41,003 nucleotides of DNA from a virus (IMGVR_UViG_3300045988_002471:1-41003); one strand, 5' to 3'; counted from the stretch's first letter, positions 1,204 to 9,599 are shown. The notes: a model not told the origin generated them from the letters alone. Program-made: numbers and translations.

Positions 1204-1677
1204 ATGGAACATATAAAAGATTTTCTAAGCTACGACCGAGAAACCGGGGTATTCACGTGGATACAGCCTACTTACCGTCGAGGGCGACCGGGAGACATCG
1301 CGGGGTGCATCAATAGTAGTGGATACTGGCGAATTCCGTACATGGGTCGATATTACATGGCGCACAGGCTGGCGTGGTTTTTCGAGTATGGTGAATGGCC
1401 CGAAGGTCCTCTTGATCATATAAACCGTGACAGGTTAGACAATAGGATTTCTAACCTAAGGAAAGCAACAACCGCCGATAATGTGCGAAACGCTAAAAAT
1501 AAGGGAGCTAGAACAGGAGTAAAGGGAGTAGTTAAAAACGGCAACCGATTTTACGGGCGTGTGCATTTTAACTACAAAAGTTATAACGCCGGTAGCTACG
1601 GAACTCTTGAAGAAGCAGAAAGCGCTGTAAAGAAATTAAGAGAAAAACTGCACAAGGAATTTTATTGCCATGACTAG
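1204..1677 (+). CDS. HNH homing endonuclease with C-terminal AP2 domain
   Basis: DHINRDRLDNRISNL HNH motif and GVKGV...GRVHFNYKSYNAGSYGTLEEA AP2-like region; start moved to ATG 1204 after RBS GGAG because the track start lies in the terminator. Confidence 0.75.
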   Translation: MEHIKDFLSYDRETGVFTWIQPTYRRGRPGDIAGCINSSGYWRIPYMGRYYMAHRLAWFFEYGEWPEGPLDHINRDRLDNRISNLRKATTADNVRNAKNKGARTGVKGVVKNGNRFYGRVHFNYKSYNAGSYGTLEEAESAVKKLREKLHKEFYCHD

Positions 1678-3847
1678 TTTATTATACCTGGATACCGAGA
1701 CGTTCTCTGGAGCGGACTTAAAGAAAGTCGGGTCGTATGCGTACGCGGAGCACCCGACGACAGAGGTTATAATTTGCACATATGCCGTTGATGATGGTCC
1801 TGTAGAAGTATGGGATTGCACTTCCGAAACAGTAATGCCAATAAGCCTCCGTGTTGCGCTCCGTAATGTTATGCGCGGACGTATGAAAATCGTGGGCCAT
1901 AACTTTTTAATGTTCGACCGTCTCATCATGAAGCACTGCTGGGGTTTTGATATTCCCGTAAGCAACACCATTGATACGATGATTTGGGCGTTTCGTCACG
2001 CGCTGCCGGGTTCACTCGACGCATTGTGCGAAGTGCTTGGCGTGTCTGCAGACAACGCGAAAGACAAACGAGGCAAAGCGCTTATTCAGCGTTTCTCTAA
2101 ACCGACGCCGAAGAACTACAAAATTCGCCGCTACACTGCTGAAACGCACCCGGATGAGTGGGCGCTGTTCATCAAGTACGCCGTTAGCGACATCACCGCG
2201 ATGCGTGAGGTCTTCCATAAGTTGCCGCGTTGGGGTAACTCAGAGTTTGAAGACCGTGTACTGGAACTGGACCAGTTAATTAACGACCGCGGGTTTAAGG
2301 TCGACGTTGCGCTGGCGGAAGCCGCAATTGAAGCTGTGGAGAAACACAAGGCACAGTTACAGGAAGAAGCCCAACGTAAATACGGCGGCTCGCTTACAGG
2401 TAAGGACTTCCTGCCGATTCTGCGTGAACTGGCGCCTGCGCATCGCATCCACAACGCGCAGAAGTCTACGCTTAACGACCTGCTTGCTGACGATGATTTA
2501 CCGGACGACGCCCGCACGATTATAGAAATGCGCCTCGGGGCGGCATCCACTGCGTCAACGAAATATAACCCGCTGCTGTTAGGCCGCTCGTCTGACGACC
2601 GCCGTCGCGGTTGCATCCAGTATGGTGGAGCTAAACGTACGTTACGATTTGCTGGTAAAGGCTTCCAGCCGCAGAACCTGGCGCGTGGGTACTATCACGA
2701 TGATGAACTGGATAAAGGTATTTCAGCATTACTTAAGGGCCGAGCACATCGCCGTTTTGATGTAGCCAAGCTAACGGCATCTACGGTTCGCAGCTGCATT
2801 ATCCCGGAAGCCGGACATAAGTTTGTCGTCGCCGACTACTCGAACGTTGAAGGCCGCGGGCTTGCGTGGCTGGCGGGGGAAGAAACCGCGCTAGATACGT
2901 TCCGTGCCGGACTGGATATTTACTGCGTAACCGCGGGTAAGATGTTCGGTATGGAGCCGGATTACATTAAGAAAGAACGTAAAGATTTGCGCCAGATTGG
3001 TAAGGCCTGCGAACTTGGGCTTGGCTATGCGGGCGGTGTCGGCGCATTCGTACAGTTCGCCAAGAACCTTGGCCTTGACCTGGTTGATATGGCAAAAACA
3101 ATGGATGGGACTTTCCCCGACCACATCTGGGCCGCTACCTCACGTGGATATGAGTGGGCGCGTATTCAGGAAGCCAAGCGACCACCACGTCCAGGTGAAA
3201 AGGATGACCGACCATCATATATTCTTGATAAGAAAGTGTGGCGTACCTGTGACGCTATCAAGCGTATGTGGCGTGAGTCACACCCGGAAACAGTAGCTTT
3301 CTGGCGGGATATTGAAGACGCAGCTATGGCAGCTATCCGCAATCCGGGCAAAGAGTTCACCGCAGGGCCGCGGGGAGTTAAGTTTTCGCGCAACGTAGAA
3401 ACGGACAACAACGGCAACAAAGTCGCCGGTTGGTGGTTGCGGATGACGTTGCCGTCGGGCCGCGTTATGTCTTATCCGGGTGTTGGGCTAAGCGTGTCGA
3501 AAGAGACAGACGAAGACGGGAAGGTGTCTACCAACGTGCGCATCAAGTACCAGGGCGAAAACCAGTTAACCCGTCAGTGGGGCTTCCAGTACACCTACTC
3601 TGGTAAACTGGTGGAAAACTGCACTCAGGCGCTGTGCCGTGATTTGTTGGCTAATGCACTGCTGAACGTCGAAGCAAACGGCTACCCGATTGTGCTTCAT
3701 GTTCACGATGAGATTATCTGCGAGACACCAGATTTACCAGAATACAATGTCGCAGAACTGGAACGATTGATGTGCGAATTACCAGAGTGGGCCGAGGGGT
3801 TCCCTCTTGTAGCAGAAGGCGCGGAGATGAAGCGTTATGCCAAGTAA
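1670..3847 (+). CDS. DNA polymerase, family A (Pol I-like) with 3'-5' exonuclease domain
   Basis: 725 aa; N-terminal LYLDTETF Exo I motif; C-terminal polymerase region with HVHDEI; start overlaps HNH stop. Confidence 0.85.
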   Translation: MTSLLYLDTETFSGADLKKVGSYAYAEHPTTEVIICTYAVDDGPVEVWDCTSETVMPISLRVALRNVMRGRMKIVGHNFLMFDRLIMKHCWGFDIPVSNTIDTMIWAFRHALPGSLDALCEVLGVSADNAKDKRGKALIQRFSKPTPKNYKIRRYTAETHPDEWALFIKYAVSDITAMREVFHKLPRWGNSEFEDRVLELDQLINDRGFKVDVALAEAAIEAVEKHKAQLQEEAQRKYGGSLTGKDFLPILRELAPAHRIHNAQKSTLNDLLADDDLPDDARTIIEMRLGAASTASTKYNPLLLGRSSDDRRRGCIQYGGAKRTLRFAGKGFQPQNLARGYYHDDELDKGISALLKGRAHRRFDVAKLTASTVRSCIIPEAGHKFVVADYSNVEGRGLAWLAGEETALDTFRAGLDIYCVTAGKMFGMEPDYIKKERKDLRQIGKACELGLGYAGGVGAFVQFAKNLGLDLVDMAKTMDGTFPDHIWAATSRGYEWARIQEAKRPPRPGEKDDRPSYILDKKVWRTCDAIKRMWRESHPETVAFWRDIEDAAMAAIRNPGKEFTAGPRGVKFSRNVETDNNGNKVAGWWLRMTLPSGRVMSYPGVGLSVSKETDEDGKVSTNVRIKYQGENQLTRQWGFQYTYSGKLVENCTQALCRDLLANALLNVEANGYPIVLHVHDEIICETPDLPEYNVAELERLMCELPEWAEGFPLVAEGAEMKRYAK

Positions 3848-3968
3848 ACTGATTATCGCGGTACTGGCGGGATTTGCTGCCGGTGTCTACTGTCACGAGG
3901 GTCAATACGGCATGATGGTTGCTATATTGGGTATGTTCATCGCAATTTATCTGTGGGTGCTGGAATGA
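3837..3968 (+). CDS. Small hydrophobic protein (43 aa), putative membrane peptide
   Basis: Own translation MPSKLIIAVLAGFAAGVYCHEGQYGMMVAILGMFIAIYLWVLE; below the ORF-track size cutoff. Confidence 0.3.
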   Translation: MPSKLIIAVLAGFAAGVYCHEGQYGMMVAILGMFIAIYLWVLE

Positions 3969-4063
3969 AAATCTACTGGTTTTATGAAGAAGACTGTCGA
4001 ATCTGTCCGCGCTGCGGTATTGAACATACGAAACGTGAGGGGTGTATAGATGAGTACGCCTGA
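3965..4063 (+). CDS. Small CxxC...CxxC zinc-ribbon-like peptide (32 aa)
   Basis: Own translation MKIYWFYEEDCRICPRCGIEHTKREGCIDEYA; ATGA overlap with upstream stop; overlaps VRR-NUC start. Confidence 0.25.
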   Translation: MKIYWFYEEDCRICPRCGIEHTKREGCIDEYA

Positions 4064-4355
4064 GGGGCGCATCCAGAAATACGCAAAAGAGCGATTCGAG
4101 GCCCTCGGTGGCCTCGTTCGAAAGCTGTCTTATGAGGGGCGCTCAGGCGCCCCCGACCTGCTGGTAATTCTTCCCGGCGGCATCGTCTGGTTCGTCGAGG
4201 TTAAGAAAGACGAAAACACGAAGCCAGACCCGCACCAGATACGTGAGCACGAGCGGATGCGTAAACGCGGTGCAAATGTTTTTGTAGTTGGTTCGCTCAA
4301 ACAGGTTGACGACCTAATAGCAAACTATTATAGTAGTCATACACCAACAATATAA
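4050..4355 (+). CDS. VRR-NUC domain nuclease (PD-(D/E)XK)
   Basis: 101 aa with GAPDLLVI...VWFVEVKK (D...E-V-K) core; RBS GAGGGG upstream. Confidence 0.7.
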   Translation: MSTPEGRIQKYAKERFEALGGLVRKLSYEGRSGAPDLLVILPGGIVWFVEVKKDENTKPDPHQIREHERMRKRGANVFVVGSLKQVDDLIANYYSSHTPTI

Positions 4356-4366
4356 GGAATTGAGAA

Positions 4367-4561
4367 ATGAAACACGAATACGACCGCAAACCAGCACGTG
4401 ACATCGTACCTGGCGACATGATTTTCAACGTTAAGACCCGTCGCCCTGTTGCCGTTGATACGGTGTTCGTCGAGTCGAACGGTAAACTGGTTATCGAAGA
4501 TGTAACGGGCAACGTTACCGCGTTCGGGCGTAAAGAGCTGGTACTCTACGTTAAGGATTGA
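4367..4561 (+). CDS. Hypothetical protein (64 aa)
   Basis: ORF with RBS AAGGA; between VRR-NUC and helicase. Confidence 0.45.
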   Translation: MKHEYDRKPARDIVPGDMIFNVKTRRPVAVDTVFVESNGKLVIEDVTGNVTAFGRKELVLYVKD

Positions 4562-4563
4562 GC

Positions 4564-5988
4564 ATGTCTAAATTTATCCGTCGAGAGTACCAGAAGCTCA
4601 TGACTTCGTTCATGTTGCAACACCCTCGCTGTAATATCTGGTGCGGCATGGGAGGGGGTAAAACCTCCTCTACTATGTGGGTGCTAAATCGACTGTTCCG
4701 TAATGGGCAACTTAATGACGACGACCGAGTGTTAATTCTGGCCCCTTTACGTGTTGCGTCCGGTACGTGGCCCGCAGAACAAGAGAAATGGAACTTCCCT
4801 TGTCTGCGTGTCGTCGATGCGACCGGTTCAGAGAAGCGCCGCATCGCGGCGCTGGAGTCAGATGCTAACGTGGTGTGCACAAACTACGAAGTTATCGAGT
4901 GGCTGATTGACTACTACGGCAAAGACGACTGGCCTTTTACGGTTATCGTTGCTGATGAGAGCACGAAGCTGAAATCTTTCCGTAGCCGTTCTGGAGGAAG
5001 CAAACGGGCTAAGGCGCTAAGCAAAGTGGCGTTCGGAAAGGTTAAGCGTTTCATTAACCTGACAGGCACACCGTCGCCGAACGGCCTCAAGGACTTGTGG
5101 GGGCAGAACTGGTTTATCGACGCTGGCGAGCGCCTTGGTTCTTCGTACACGGCATTCACCGACCGCTGGTTTAACTCAGTACAGAAAGGCAAGTCGGCGA
5201 TGGCGCGGGAGTACCACGCACGCCCGGGCGCGGATAATGAAATTCACCAGAAGATGAAAGACATAAGCCTCACTATTGACGCCGCTGAGTGGTTCGGGTG
5301 TGAAGCGCCGATTATTGTTCCGGTTGAAATCGACCTGCCGAAGAAAGCACGTCAGGCGTACATCGATATGGAGGAGAAGTTATTCGCGGAACTTGAGAGC
5401 GGGGAAGTGGAAGCTGCTAACGCTGCTGCGAAGACGTCGAAGTGCTTGCAAATTGCATCCGGTGCCGTATATGTATCGGGGCCAGACGGCGAAGCAACCA
5501 AAGAATGGGAGAAAGTGCACGACACGAAACTGGACGCGCTTGAGTCGATTGTGGAGGAGTTACAGGGTGCGCCGCTGCTTGTGGCCTATCAGTTCAAGCA
5601 CGAACTGGAGCGTATCCTTAAGCGATTCCCACAAGCACAGGCGTTTGCCAAAGGAGCGAAGGGTAATAAGCAGATGGAAGCGTGGAATCGTGGAGAAATC
5701 GAAATCTTATGCGTACATCCTGCGTCAGCGGGCCACGGCATATCGCTACAAGACGGCGGCCATCATATGGCGTTTTTCAGTCAGGGATGGAACCTCGAAC
5801 ACTATTTGCAGGTTATCGAGCGTATAGGTCCAACACGGCAAAAGCAATCTGGGTACAATCGCACCGTTTTTATCTACAAGATTATCGCTAAAGATACGTT
5901 GGATGAAGTAGTTGCGGCTCGTACCGACGAGAAAAAACAAGTACAAGACATACTACTAGAGTATATGAAGCGCAGAGGTAAAAAATGA
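4564..5988 (+). CDS. SNF2/DEAD-like superfamily 2 DNA helicase
   Basis: GMGGGKT Walker A-like, VIVADESTKLK DExx box, LTGTPSPN motif; start set to ATG 4564 after RBS AAGGA. Confidence 0.8.
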   Translation: MSKFIRREYQKLMTSFMLQHPRCNIWCGMGGGKTSSTMWVLNRLFRNGQLNDDDRVLILAPLRVASGTWPAEQEKWNFPCLRVVDATGSEKRRIAALESDANVVCTNYEVIEWLIDYYGKDDWPFTVIVADESTKLKSFRSRSGGSKRAKALSKVAFGKVKRFINLTGTPSPNGLKDLWGQNWFIDAGERLGSSYTAFTDRWFNSVQKGKSAMAREYHARPGADNEIHQKMKDISLTIDAAEWFGCEAPIIVPVEIDLPKKARQAYIDMEEKLFAELESGEVEAANAAAKTSKCLQIASGAVYVSGPDGEATKEWEKVHDTKLDALESIVEELQGAPLLVAYQFKHELERILKRFPQAQAFAKGAKGNKQMEAWNRGEIEILCVHPASAGHGISLQDGGHHMAFFSQGWNLEHYLQVIERIGPTRQKQSGYNRTVFIYKIIAKDTLDEVVAARTDEKKQVQDILLEYMKRRGKK

Positions 5989-6482
5989 CCTATTGGAATG
6001 AGCTTTTTAATTACGACCCTAATACCGGGGTACTATCATGGAAAAAGTGGCGTAGGGGTGCAAAAAGAAGTTTAGTAGCGGGCACAAAGGAGCGTGACGG
6101 GTATGTGCGTGTGAAACATAAAAACAAGCATATCCCCGTTCACAGAATAATTTGGGATATGTGCAACCCTAATGATGTTCTGACTCCCGGATTCGAGATA
6201 GACCATATAAATCACATAAGGGATGACAATAGAATATTAAACTTGAGAAAAGTAGTTAAGATTGATAACAACCGCAACACGACAAGAAACAAGGCTAATA
6301 CTTCTGGGGTTGTAGGTGTACATTTTAACCGTTCGAGAGGTAAATGGGTCGCCGTTATCTACGACAATCGTAAGCTCGTTTTCTTGGGGCACTTCTCTGA
6401 TTTCAAAGACGCTGTTGCTGTCAGGAAAGCAGCGGAAATAAAATACAATTACCACGAAAACCACGGGTCAGAAAAACCATGA
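5985..6482 (+). CDS. HNH homing endonuclease with AP2 domain (paralog of 1204..1677)
   Basis: IDHINHIRDDNRILNL HNH motif plus SGVVGVHFNRSRGKWVAVI AP2-like region. Confidence 0.75.
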   Translation: MTYWNELFNYDPNTGVLSWKKWRRGAKRSLVAGTKERDGYVRVKHKNKHIPVHRIIWDMCNPNDVLTPGFEIDHINHIRDDNRILNLRKVVKIDNNRNTTRNKANTSGVVGVHFNRSRGKWVAVIYDNRKLVFLGHFSDFKDAVAVRKAAEIKYNYHENHGSEKP

Positions 6483-6616
6483 ACATCATAGCCCCGATTC
6501 CGGCATTGCAAAAACGTATCAAGGAACTCGAAGAAGAGGTTCTACGACTACGGCAGCAAAGAGACGCCGCTAATGCACAACTGGCGTTCATACTGGAGAA
6601 GTTATCTGAAGGGTAG
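6479..6616 (+). CDS. Small coiled-coil protein (45 aa)
   Basis: Own translation MNIIAPIPALQKRIKELEEEVLRLRQQRDAANAQLAFILEKLSEG; ATGA coupling to HNH stop. Confidence 0.3.
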   Translation: MNIIAPIPALQKRIKELEEEVLRLRQQRDAANAQLAFILEKLSEG

Positions 6617-6620
6617 AGAA

Positions 6621-6648
6621 AAGGCCCCGTTTGGGGCCTTAGTTTTAT
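6621..6648 (+). terminator. Rho-independent terminator (AAGGCCCC-gttt-GGGGCCTT + T-run) ending the plus-strand early operon; convergent with tailspike 3' end
   Basis: Perfect 8-bp GC stem then AGTTTTATTT. Confidence 0.7.
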
Positions 6649-9599
6649 TTATCTTCTAGTGCTGCCAGCCTCTTCTCGAACTCGCGCATCTTCTTACGCT
6701 GATAGGCAATCTCTATGAAGAACATCTGGTCCGCCCTAACCCCCCATCTGCCGCCGGGAGGGGATACTTGTACAGTCTGGCCCTCTTCATCAATATCATA
6801 CGCAGCTTCAATTGGGTCGTAGCACAAGAAAGCATATTTACAATCGGTAGAATCTTTCTCCATAAGCCCATGGTTGACCAAGATGTCTCGCACATCTTGG
6901 GCTATCACACCGAAGTGTATCCTTGCAGTGTCACCCTTGATTGCTAGGCTTTCAAGCCACTTAAAAGATATTACATGTATATCTTCCCATGCGGTAAGGA
7001 GTTGTCCCTCAATTTCCTCTTTATTCGTCTTAAGTGTACCATCAGACGTGTTTATCGTACCGGTGGTCGCGTACACCGTAGTCCACCTGTTACCTGCCGA
7101 ACCTAAAGGCACTTGCGAGTCTAAGTAAGGAAGGAAATTGTTGTATGAGTAGAAGCCTCCTGACGCATACATAATAGCCCTGTTAGGCGTTGCATGGTTT
7201 GCCCCGTACAGTTGCAGCAACGCACCATCGGAACTGGATGCGCCATCACCACCGCTAACTATCAGTCTTTGAACCGATGGGGTTTTAGTGGGGACTGTTT
7301 TTGAAATCAGCCCGTAATCACCATCAAACCGTGCGCGCACGGCAGACTGTTGTGTACCATCGTATTCCAGCCCCGTTACATGCAGGGAGTACACGCTTAC
7401 ATCATTGTCAAACGTTAAAGGTGCTTCTACATGGCGTACACCATCTACCCCCATGGCGACAGGTATTGTACGGTTAGGAGTTGCTCCGTATTTGAAATCA
7501 CGTGATACGTACGGGTGGTCTTCAATCTTTATCCGGTAGCTATATAAGTCAGCCGGATGCCCATCATGTTTGTACCATAACTTCGCACTGTTATCCCCTA
7601 TGCTCCAGGGAGAGAAGAAGTCTTCCCCACCAAAGATATAGTACAACCAGCCATCTTTAACACAGACCGAGCCGACGCCGACAGCAGAGTTAACGATATG
7701 ACCCTGGTATATTTGGTCGGTAATATTAAACCACTGAACATCATCTAAAGATGAAGGCCAGGACGACACATTGACTTTGCACATAAAGGTCCGTGGATAC
7801 GAACCTTCATAGCGGCTGTCCGGCTCGCCTCCTTCCCACTCGCCAAAGGCACGCTCTGTACCAAAGATGTAGAGATAGTCACCTACTTTAGCGAACGGAA
7901 GATTGGAGTGATGTACATTGTTCGGAAATCGCAAGTAGCTCCAGTTTTGCCCAGAATCGGTGCTCATCGCCAGTGTAGAGCCAGGGGAAGTAGGTAATGT
8001 GCCGCGTGTGGTAAGGTAGAGCACCCCACCATAACTTTTCACGCACGGCTCAGAAGCGTTATCAGCGTATGCCTGAGCGACAGTGCGACGAACGAATACG
8101 CCTGGATTGTCATACACGTTACTAAAATACAAGACGCCAAGACGACGAGGGGACACATCGCCGTTGTGGTAGCCGACAGCGATAGTGTAGTTAACATCAT
8201 CTATAACCGCAAAACTATGTGTCTCCGTGACACACAAATCAGCGTTAGTGGAGTATGCTACCCCAGGCAATTCGGTAATTTCCCACGGGCTGTCCCAGAA
8301 TCGCGTTGCGAAGTTCCAGGTAACACCCGCATTGTTTATGGTGGAACTCGCCGGGGTTGAGAGCGTAACAGTGAACGTATTTCGGTTAATTATAGACGAA
8401 ACCGTCATATTACCCGATACGCCAGTTGCCGATGTATTAGAGAAGTTAACCGCATCTCCTGCTTTTAGACCATGATTTTCTATAACAATGGTAGCAGTAG
8501 TGGAGCCAGAACTAATAGTTATTCCGCCGGTTGGGTGTCTAAAATACGGCATTGGGCGTGACCAAAGTTCTGCCTTCTTCATCCGCATATTAGATAAGTA
8601 GCGGGTTTCTATAACTGCATATAATCGGTTGCCGCACGTACCCATGCTCATGCAGTGGTAGTTAACTCTGTCCGAGGAAACACTAGCATTATAGTCAGCA
8701 TGGATCGGGGTCAACCACTCAGGCATTGACCAAGTCTGCCCGTCGTCACCAGAGCGAACCCAAGCTACATGTAAGTTTTGAACGCCATGTCGTTCGCCTG
8801 CCATAAACGGAGCGTAAATAACATTGTCGTAGACGAAAGTTTTATCCTGCGTCCATGCGTTGTAGAACGGGGTATCCGTCACCTTAGTTAGTGAGCCGTT
8901 AAAGAAGCCATCAGCTACATAAGTAAGCGGTTGCCCAGCTACGCGCTCGTAAACGAATGCAGCATTCTTAAATTTACTAATGTCAGGTAATTGGGAAACT
9001 TTATAAGTCAAACCCCTGCCGTCTATAATCCAATTGTTGGGGGAAGCTGCTAATACATTAAAAATAGATTGAGTATCATCAGTTACGCCGTCGCCCACGG
9101 CGCCCCATGCGCGCAGGTCGTATTCGTCCTTCCATCGCGCCACATGTAAATCTGGGTACAGAATTGCACCGTTTACATCAGATATTTGATGCCGCAGTAT
9201 GACCGACCCGACGGGCTGCCATGCCCCATCTGCCACGCCACCGGTGGACTGCGGAGAGGATGACGCTGGGATAATTTTTGGCAGAGCACCCAACCAATAG
9301 TACCAGTCCCCGTCACCGCCAGAGGACGACGGCCACAAAACTGCGGTGTTTCGGTCGTTAGCGGATAGTGTACCGCCTGACGTGAAATCAAAATCTGCCA
9401 GTTTAAAACCTGCGTCACGCAACACAGCCGGCAGTGTCTTCTGTGTCTGCCCTGTAACTGCGTTGGTCGCGTAATCGATATCAGAGCCACCAGCAACGCC
9501 GCCGGATTTACCAGTGATAACCTCGGCTTCGAAAATCTGGTGTTTCGTGGCGGTCTGTAAATCCGCCAGGCTTAAAACGTCACCGCATCCGCTTGACAT
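6645..9599 (-). CDS. Tailspike, sialidase-like (Asp-box/BNR) with C-terminal intramolecular chaperone (peptidase S74-like) domain; possible endosialidase
   Basis: 984 aa; Asp-boxes SGDDGQTW and STDSGQNW; GAVGDGVTDDT motif; C-terminal ...HFGVIAQDVRDIL...AALEDK autoproteolytic chaperone signature. Confidence 0.8.
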   Translation of the reverse strand: MSSGCGDVLSLADLQTATKHQIFEAEVITGKSGGVAGGSDIDYATNAVTGQTQKTLPAVLRDAGFKLADFDFTSGGTLSANDRNTAVLWPSSSGGDGDWYYWLGALPKIIPASSSPQSTGGVADGAWQPVGSVILRHQISDVNGAILYPDLHVARWKDEYDLRAWGAVGDGVTDDTQSIFNVLAASPNNWIIDGRGLTYKVSQLPDISKFKNAAFVYERVAGQPLTYVADGFFNGSLTKVTDTPFYNAWTQDKTFVYDNVIYAPFMAGERHGVQNLHVAWVRSGDDGQTWSMPEWLTPIHADYNASVSSDRVNYHCMSMGTCGNRLYAVIETRYLSNMRMKKAELWSRPMPYFRHPTGGITISSGSTTATIVIENHGLKAGDAVNFSNTSATGVSGNMTVSSIINRNTFTVTLSTPASSTINNAGVTWNFATRFWDSPWEITELPGVAYSTNADLCVTETHSFAVIDDVNYTIAVGYHNGDVSPRRLGVLYFSNVYDNPGVFVRRTVAQAYADNASEPCVKSYGGVLYLTTRGTLPTSPGSTLAMSTDSGQNWSYLRFPNNVHHSNLPFAKVGDYLYIFGTERAFGEWEGGEPDSRYEGSYPRTFMCKVNVSSWPSSLDDVQWFNITDQIYQGHIVNSAVGVGSVCVKDGWLYYIFGGEDFFSPWSIGDNSAKLWYKHDGHPADLYSYRIKIEDHPYVSRDFKYGATPNRTIPVAMGVDGVRHVEAPLTFDNDVSVYSLHVTGLEYDGTQQSAVRARFDGDYGLISKTVPTKTPSVQRLIVSGGDGASSSDGALLQLYGANHATPNRAIMYASGGFYSYNNFLPYLDSQVPLGSAGNRWTTVYATTGTINTSDGTLKTNKEEIEGQLLTAWEDIHVISFKWLESLAIKGDTARIHFGVIAQDVRDILVNHGLMEKDSTDCKYAFLCYDPIEAAYDIDEEGQTVQVSPPGGRWGVRADQMFFIEIAYQRKKMREFEKRLAALEDK

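Follow-up and report, generated by a model that had tools for sequence, protein, structure and literature searches.

A free-standing HNH-AP2 gene, probably a homing endonuclease gene, in the variable slot behind the helicase gene of a Kagunavirus genome

What kind of gene sits between the stop codon of a phage helicase gene and the start codon of the next conserved gene when most close relatives lack it, and how did it arrive? This question is raised by a viral DNA of 41,003 nucleotides (nt) (IMGVR_UViG_3300045988_002471:1-41003; the entire stretch is hereafter called the window), a Kagunavirus genome (Guernseyvirinae) that resembles coliphages K1G and K1H. The gene, which we denote HNH-2, is an ATG-initiated open reading frame (ORF) of 165 amino acids (aa) at positions 5985-6482 of the plus strand. 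An earlier note on this DNA described it as a diverged paralogue of another HNH-AP2 gene of the window (hereafter, HNH-1), but mentioned neither the presence/absence polymorphism in a variable slot nor the linkage of the gene to a diverged 3' end of the helicase gene that we report here. Taken together, the evidence makes it probable that HNH-2, which occupies a variable slot behind the helicase gene of Kagunavirus, is an expressed and intact homing endonuclease gene, free-standing and of the HNH(HNN)-AP2 type. The target of the enzyme probably lies in the 3' end of the helicase allele of genomes without the HNH gene, a location to which sequence comparisons point.

We compared the locus with GenBank relatives (L001-L004), metagenome contigs (L005-L013) and 60 IMG/VR loci that were found via the helicase. 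The slot is empty in 13 of the ~60 loci, where the helicase stop overlaps the ATG of the next gene (orf45), and is filled by HNH-2 in 11-12, by a second HNH-AP2 lineage (fEg-Eco19 type, 48% identical) in 3-4, by a 171-aa protein that contains only a Toprim_2 domain and is annotated as “DNA primase” in 10, and by one of several small ORFs in 23. The junctions of the cargo are identical in every case: all alternative cargos in the relatives enter right after the same AAATGA at the end of the helicase gene. Empty sites read ...AAATGAACATCAT, and at occupied sites, the gene lies exactly between two ATGA overlaps, such that the orf45 ATG joined to HNH-2 in the window is the same one that the helicase TGA overlaps in the empty-site relatives. 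In relatives that are otherwise colinear, HNH-2 is either present or absent at this one precise site.

The same pattern is apparent in database searches. The region from the helicase gene to the tailspike gene matches 455 phage records, the best of these being K1-specific Escherichia coli phages with ~90-93% identity, and these best matches are always split in two, with the HNH gene skipped. Among 50,697 deposited phage records, there is no protein more than 58% identical to HNH-2, yet this allele is common in metagenome-assembled Kagunavirus genomes. In a large protein collection, HNH-2 belongs to one 99% cluster that comes from public sequencing-run assemblies only, and at least 23 metagenome contigs encode an identical protein, the gene following the helicase gene and preceding orf45 on all of them. 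A blastn search in distant mode against cultured phages detected DNA similarity to the gene only in patches of 40-130 nt, and because there is no DNA-level relative beyond such short patches, the donor phage cannot be named. Contigs with the HNH-2 protein carry at least 6 tailspike types, and a methylase is present in some of them and absent from others; the combination of varied tailspikes with an identical HNH-2 implies that host-range modules are swapped on one replication backbone. Past orf45 (~4660-7600 of L005-L013), the tailspikes are of the endosialidase, GDSL-lipase-like, BNR_2, Phage_spike_2, Peptidase_S74-only and Tail_spike_N-only types. A literature search on the post-helicase site in Guernseyvirinae returned only generic mentions of an “HNH endonuclease”.

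The product of HNH-2 consists of an N-terminal HNH nuclease of the HNN type, similar to I-HmuI (core at residues ~40-100), and a C-terminal AP2 DNA-binding domain (residues ~107-155). The nuclease part matches Pfam HNH_3 (PF13392; residues 52-97, E=1e-8, 35.1 bits against a cut-off of 24.8), and the protein matches PHROG 99, “HNH endonuclease” (E=2.4e-58). The Pfam AP2 profile (PF00847) remains below the threshold on HNH-2 alone (residues 107-138, 18.7 bits against 33.3, E=2e-3), and precomputed PF00847 matches are present on several homologues. The family profile that we built from 44 HNH-2 homologues detected both I-HmuI (1U3E; residues 30-102, E=1.8e-8) and the plant AP2 domains of WRI1 (E=1.7e-6) and TEM1 (E=2.7e-4; residues ~92-155), and a single-sequence search of PDB sequences with HNH-2 yielded only noise (E of at least 0.06). 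In the AlphaFold2 model (predicted local distance difference test (pLDDT) 91.8, predicted template modelling score (pTM) 0.74), N-terminal hairpins precede a beta-beta-alpha-metal fold (strands 70-74 and 87-91, followed by helix 92-97) and an AP2 half with strands 112-115, 120-127 and 130-137 and helix 140-153. The top PDB fold in Foldseek is I-HmuI (probability 0.99, E=2.4e-3), and the model superposes on the AP2 domains of TEM1 (root mean square deviation (rmsd) 1.3 A over 46 columns) and ERF1 (rmsd 1.4 A over 50; template modelling score 0.65 on the target). The motif boxes read HR..W, DH, DNR, NLR and N..N, without cysteine dyads; R54, D73, H74, I75, N82, L87, N95 and N98 are invariant across the 44 aligned homologues, N86 is present in at least 90%, and, judging from this conservation, the predicted catalytic residues D73-H74, N82 and N95/N98 are intact. 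The combination of an HNH nuclease with an AP2-like domain that the earlier note had proposed is thereby borne out, with HNH_3 above the Pfam cut-off and AP2 supported by the family profile and by fold; a failure of the motifs to hit such profiles did not occur.

The note had also claimed coupling of the gene to the helicase stop and to a downstream 45-aa ORF, and indeed an ATGA overlap is found at both ends. GAGGT, located 8 nt upstream of the HNH-2 ATG within the 3' end of the helicase gene, would serve as the Shine-Dalgarno sequence. Through this site and the ATGA overlaps, HNH-2 would be translationally coupled to the helicase and to orf45, and would need no promoter of its own. A promoter scan of positions 4300-6900 found nothing above the shuffled expectation (4 sites against 3.3 expected), and a terminator-like hairpin beyond orf45 (Table 1) appears to mark the end of the operon that contains HNH-2.

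The helicase gene itself bears a trace that goes along with HNH-2. Among the HNH-2 carriers, the last 155 nt of the helicase gene are 88-100% identical to the window; the identity drops to 72-83% in the carriers of the fEg-type gene and to 64-75% in the genomes with an empty slot, the Toprim protein or a small ORF. The helicase body, by comparison, matches the window at ~87-94% identity whether the slot is empty or holds the Toprim protein or an HNH gene; genomes with small ORFs range from 62 to 93%, with one or more outliers among them. The onset of the divergence, at ~5829, is sharp, and there is a second block at ~5730-5745 that is partly linked to HNH-2. The tail of the carriers is AT-rich, with a GC content of 40.6%, compared to 41.6% in the HNH gene, 54% in the helicase body and 52% in the tails of HNH-less genomes. 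The fEg-type HNH gene is likewise linked to an AT-rich helicase tail. The Toprim cargo serves as a control in the same slot and is accompanied by no distinct helicase tail (84.8% identity between Toprim and empty genomes, against 83.6-84.9% within the classes). An origin of the AT-rich tail in the Salmonella-phage lineage that carries the sister HNH gene was considered and rejected given that the tail is only 59% identical to that of vB_SenTO17. As a separate observation, one locus (L017, IMGVR_UViG_3300045988_019110, positions 3866-3995) combines an empty slot with an AT-rich tail of the fEg-Eco19 type, 94% identical to the tail of L004; this may be a case in which the endonuclease gene was precisely lost, or a resistant allele that exists without it.

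The gene and its flank have moved between genomes that are otherwise well separated. When the window is compared to L008 and L010, a tract from ~5716 to ~6528 (~810 nt) contains 2 mismatches inside a backbone that is 86-90% identical, and the synonymous divergence (dS) between the helicase bodies of these genomes and that of the window is 0.5-0.8. Across the carriers, the mean dS rises from 0.18 for the HNH gene through 0.28 for the helicase tail to 0.69 for the helicase body. HNH-2 has spread recently across diverged backbones. The tail at 5829-5984 is presumably a co-conversion tract and, at the same time, a target allele that resists cleavage. Based on the sequence comparisons, we infer cleavage by HNH-2, the location of its target and transfer driven by the endonuclease.

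HNH-1, which lies between the genes for a single-stranded DNA-binding protein and DNA polymerase, provides a second instance within the same genome. It matches HNH_3 (E=2.3e-15) and PHROG 99 (E=7e-59) and shares 34% identity with HNH-2 across 154 residues (E=4e-18). The Pfam AP2 profile gave no match on HNH-1 at E<=0.1; the C-terminal domain of the HNH-1 model (pLDDT 92.3) superposes on the TEM1 AP2 domain with an rmsd of 1.1 A over 46 columns. In an alignment with K1H, which lacks HNH-1, the polymerase gene is strongly diverged over its first ~250 nt and identical from ~1921 onward, and the HNH-1-carrying phage P AB-2017 matches the polymerase 5' region throughout. This diverged 5' end is a flank signature of HNH-1, analogous to the helicase tail at HNH-2. 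Phage P AB-2017 encodes HNH-1 at 100% aa identity and has an empty post-helicase slot, and K1G and K1H have neither gene; the two genes assort independently. In a neighbour-joining tree of 44 family members, HNH-2 is the sister of the post-helicase HNH of vB_SenTO17 (56-57% identity), HNH-1 and the fEg-Eco19-type HNH are on other branches, and the mutual distance of HNH-1 and HNH-2 is among the largest (rank 43/43 and 33/43). The two genes share the HNH and AP2 parts and are diverged in sequence, as the earlier note stated; of its two explanations, separate acquisition or old duplication, the tree and the independent assortment make separate acquisition of HNH-2 the better supported. A six-frame profile scan of the window found only HNH-1 and HNH-2, with no third copy.

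Several points weigh against an active homing endonuclease. The downstream flank, orf45, shows little differentiation, so that any co-conversion would have been one-sided. The linkage between the gene and its flank could also go back to a single import in an ancestor through ordinary recombination, with vertical descent and background recombination thereafter, and the sharp boundary at ~5829 would fit homing and ordinary recombination alike. In Foldseek, the probabilities are 0.99-1.00 but the E-values only modest (2.4e-3 and weaker). Furthermore, exact or near-exact protein identity was the criterion by which L005-L013 were retrieved, and zero counts of nonsynonymous differences among them arise partly by construction. 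A rival account, which we consider unlikely, takes the HNH gene and the AT-rich tail for accessory cargo, brought in together on a single occasion by ordinary recombination, homologous or illegitimate, at a boundary between phage modules and spread by general recombination and descent, with no involvement of the nuclease; the protein might then have another role, for example, in DNA processing or competition. The presence of many unrelated cargos with the same ATGA junctions can be taken to mean that the slot is a general recombination hotspot, and Kagunavirus genomes are mosaic, with tailspikes and methylases that differ on similar backbones. However, the diverged helicase tail is linked only to HNH cargos, in two lineages, and not to the Toprim or small-ORF cargos; the flank signature recurs independently at HNH-1 beside the polymerase gene; and the peak of identity between diverged backbones centres on the HNH gene.

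The DNA alleles of HNH-2 compared here number eight but specify only two protein variants; of the 34 segregating sites, 30 are at third codon positions. Because L006-L013 were retrieved by exact protein identity, their lack of nonsynonymous differences was not used for the ratio of nonsynonymous to synonymous divergence (dN/dS), which was obtained instead from two loci ascertained through the helicase, L016 and L027: the ratio is 0.03-0.09 for HNH-2 and 0.03-0.04 for the helicase. These values indicate that HNH-2 is under purifying selection and, the ratio being low, that the gene is functional rather than decaying. It is scarcely credible, then, that HNH-2 is a homing endonuclease gene that became fixed locally and has already lost its function. 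Degeneration after fixation is predicted by the classical life cycle of homing genes, and degenerate HNH-AP2 copies are found in Xanthomonas phages (PMC2248197), but HNH-2 is a full-length ORF that keeps all the invariant residues, yields a high-confidence two-domain model and differs among alleles almost exclusively by synonymous changes, with dN/dS <0.1, so that the sequence data contradict decay.

The same low dN/dS, comparable to that of the helicase, could also be expected of a domesticated gene, selected for a benefit to the phage, in which the AP2 domain is mainly a sequence-specific DNA binder (a repressor or an anti-defence factor, on the model of the AP2-containing CasPRs) or the HNH domain serves a phage function such as packaging. 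This explanation has some appeal given that phage proteins with AP2 domains can silence transcription (bioRxiv 10.64898/2026.02.23.707548). Nevertheless, we regard it as very improbable: most close relatives, K1G, K1H and K1ind among them, lack HNH-2, which is therefore dispensable for the lytic cycle; its nuclease residues are invariant, unlike those of CasPRs, which combine CapR with AP2 and have no HNH (same preprint); and purifying selection is expected also for a homing gene that still meets empty sites (13/~60). A packaging (terminase-associated) HNH protein was rejected specifically, since genes for such proteins adjoin the terminase and portal genes and are conserved throughout a phage group, whereas HNH-2 lies between the helicase gene and a small ORF in the replication module and is missing from most relatives.

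The Toprim protein suggests a further possibility. It is carried by L002 (2923-3438; Escherichia phage JSSK01), L026, L031, L035-L037, L039, L054, L055 and L064, and is absent from the window. It matches Toprim_2 only (Pfam E=9.7e-5) and PHROG 849, “DNA primase”, retains an intact E...DND motif and, by its length, appears too short for a full primase. The slot might be contested by unrelated nuclease-type cargos that displace each other, namely the two HNH-AP2 lineages and the Toprim-only protein, with HNH-2 selected as a weapon that excludes the markers of co-infecting relatives and the Toprim-only protein being not a “primase” but an undescribed mobile or competitive nuclease. This would explain the helicase-like dN/dS of HNH-2; all the same, we find this scenario quite unlikely.

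Under the homing interpretation, which we favour, the events would proceed as follows. During co-infection with an HNH-less relative, the AP2 domain and the N-terminal beta-hairpins would bind in or near the GC-rich 3' end of the helicase allele, where the zinc-free, I-HmuI-like HNH site would then nick or cut. Repair templated by the HNH-carrying genome would copy the gene and, with it, ~150-300 nt of the helicase tail on the upstream side and a few tens of nt on the downstream side. The AT-rich tail of the HNH-positive genomes would escape recognition, and hence, we propose, carriers are immune to their own enzyme.

The features of the locus are collected in Table 1. Past the hairpin lies a convergent tailspike gene that encodes an endosialidase-type protein of 984 aa. 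The gene orf45 is found in all close relatives, and in some of these, its versions are extended N-terminally to 56-67 aa; several GenBank records label it (PHROG 5915) “exonuclease” or “exonuclease subunit SbcD”, a label that finds no support in the present analysis. Upstream, in some relatives, the polymerase product is 200-325 aa longer (1050 aa for the DNA polymerase I of fEg-Eco19, L004, 1031 in L007 and 927 in L013, compared to 725 in the window), which suggests an insertion, such as an intein or a fused mobile ORF, in the polymerase gene. Between the polymerase gene and a VRR-NUC gene, a 36-aa ORF (3953-4063, plus strand) with a CxxCxxC...C pattern possibly encodes a mini zinc ribbon; its homologue in JSSK01 carries the implausible annotation “3-hydroxyanthranilate 3,4-dioxygenase”.

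Table 1. Coordinates of the features discussed, counted from the first nucleotide of the window
Feature	Position	Strand	Description	Evidence
HNH-1	1204..1677	+	Other HNH-AP2 gene, candidate homing endonuclease gene
5' end of DNA polymerase gene	1670..1920	+	Strongly diverged from HNH-1-less relatives	Alignment with K1H and P AB-2017, N-terminal protein comparison
Helicase gene	4558..5988	+	SNF2-family DNA helicase (host gene), 476 aa	Pfam SNF2-rel_dom (E=2.5e-12) and Helicase_C; PHROG 62 (E=4e-167)
Helicase 3' tail	5829..5984	+	AT-rich, co-segregates with HNH-2	Identity, GC, sharp boundary
HNH-2	5985..6482	+	Free-standing HNH(HNN-type)-AP2 gene, probable homing endonuclease gene, 165 aa	Pfam, PHROG 99, profile, AlphaFold2/Foldseek, dN/dS
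Upstream junction	5985..5988	+	ATGA, helicase TGA overlaps HNH-2 ATG
Downstream junction	6479..6482	+	ATGA, HNH-2 TGA overlaps orf45 ATG
orf45	6479..6616	+	Conserved 45-aa coiled-coil ORF, function unassigned	PHROG 5915 (E=1e-27)
Hairpin	6621..6640	+	Terminator-like, followed by T-run; between orf45 and convergent tailspike gene

As an element, HNH-2 is of an ordinary and well-known phage type, the family and behaviour of which have been described (PMC10448857; PMC2248197), and taken alone, it would be a matter of routine annotation; the trace of its movement between phages is unusually clear. The locus is a clean natural case of gene conversion linked to a nuclease, in which the boundary is sharp, the composition forms a signature and the other cargo provides an internal control, and therefore, the target site should be experimentally easy to find. 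There is also a practical side: Kagunavirus K1 phages are candidates for therapy, and homing genes that rewrite essential replication genes in co-infection bear on the design of cocktails and on genome stability.

Homing endonuclease genes of the HNH-AP2 type are described in phages (PMC10448857; PMC2248197), and the HNH(HNN)-AP2 family has been reported from phages, cyanobacteria and protists (Magnani et al. 2004, as cited in PMC10448857). Its known members include the “HNN-AP2” genes of the Xanthomonas phages Xp10, OP1 and Xop411 (PMC2248197) and the “IPA-HNH” genes of ICP1 (PMC10448857). Like this family, HNH-2 has an N-terminal HNH followed by AP2, the same motif boxes and no cysteine dyads, and stands free between phage genes; such nuclease genes are found at boundaries of genetic exchange, as is the case with HNH-2. 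It differs from the known HNN-AP2 genes in that it belongs to another phage lineage (Guernseyvirinae/Kagunavirus) and another site, with the closest protein from a cultured phage 58% identical, and, unlike the divergent ICP1 genes, is matched directly by Pfam HNH_3. Nearer to the window, the Salmonella phages vB_SenTO17 and St162 (“HNH homing endonuclease”) and gp54 of fEg-Eco19 show the same place (helicase, HNH, small ORF, convergent tailspike) and the same architecture. The protein of HNH-2 is 57% identical to that of SenTO17 and 48% to that of fEg-Eco19, with DNA similarity in short patches only, and given this low identity to the other Guernseyvirinae HNH proteins, it represents a distinct allele or lineage, so far found in metagenome assemblies only.

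The best solved-structure match for the nuclease half is I-HmuI (1U3E), the intron-encoded HNH nicking homing endonuclease of Bacillus phage SPO1, which shares with the HNH-2 model the zinc-free beta-beta-alpha-metal site preceded by beta-hairpins. I-HmuI, however, comes from a group I intron that interrupts a DNA polymerase gene, and the DNA-binding modules at its C-terminus are helical, including a helix-turn-helix, whereas HNH-2 is free-standing and has AP2. With respect to genomic behaviour, a parallel comes from the free-standing homing endonucleases of the T-even phages, SegG near gene 32, SegE, and MobE near nrdB, which engage in intronless homing. The Seg enzymes are of the GIY-YIG type and MobE is an HNH enzyme without AP2, and for these T-even genes, homing and co-conversion have been shown experimentally. 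Like them, HNH-2 lies between conserved genes and its presumed target is in the neighbouring essential gene of a relative that lacks the nuclease; as far as comparative data alone can indicate, HNH-2 also resembles them in that the flanking markers would be co-converted and the allele of the carrier is diverged.

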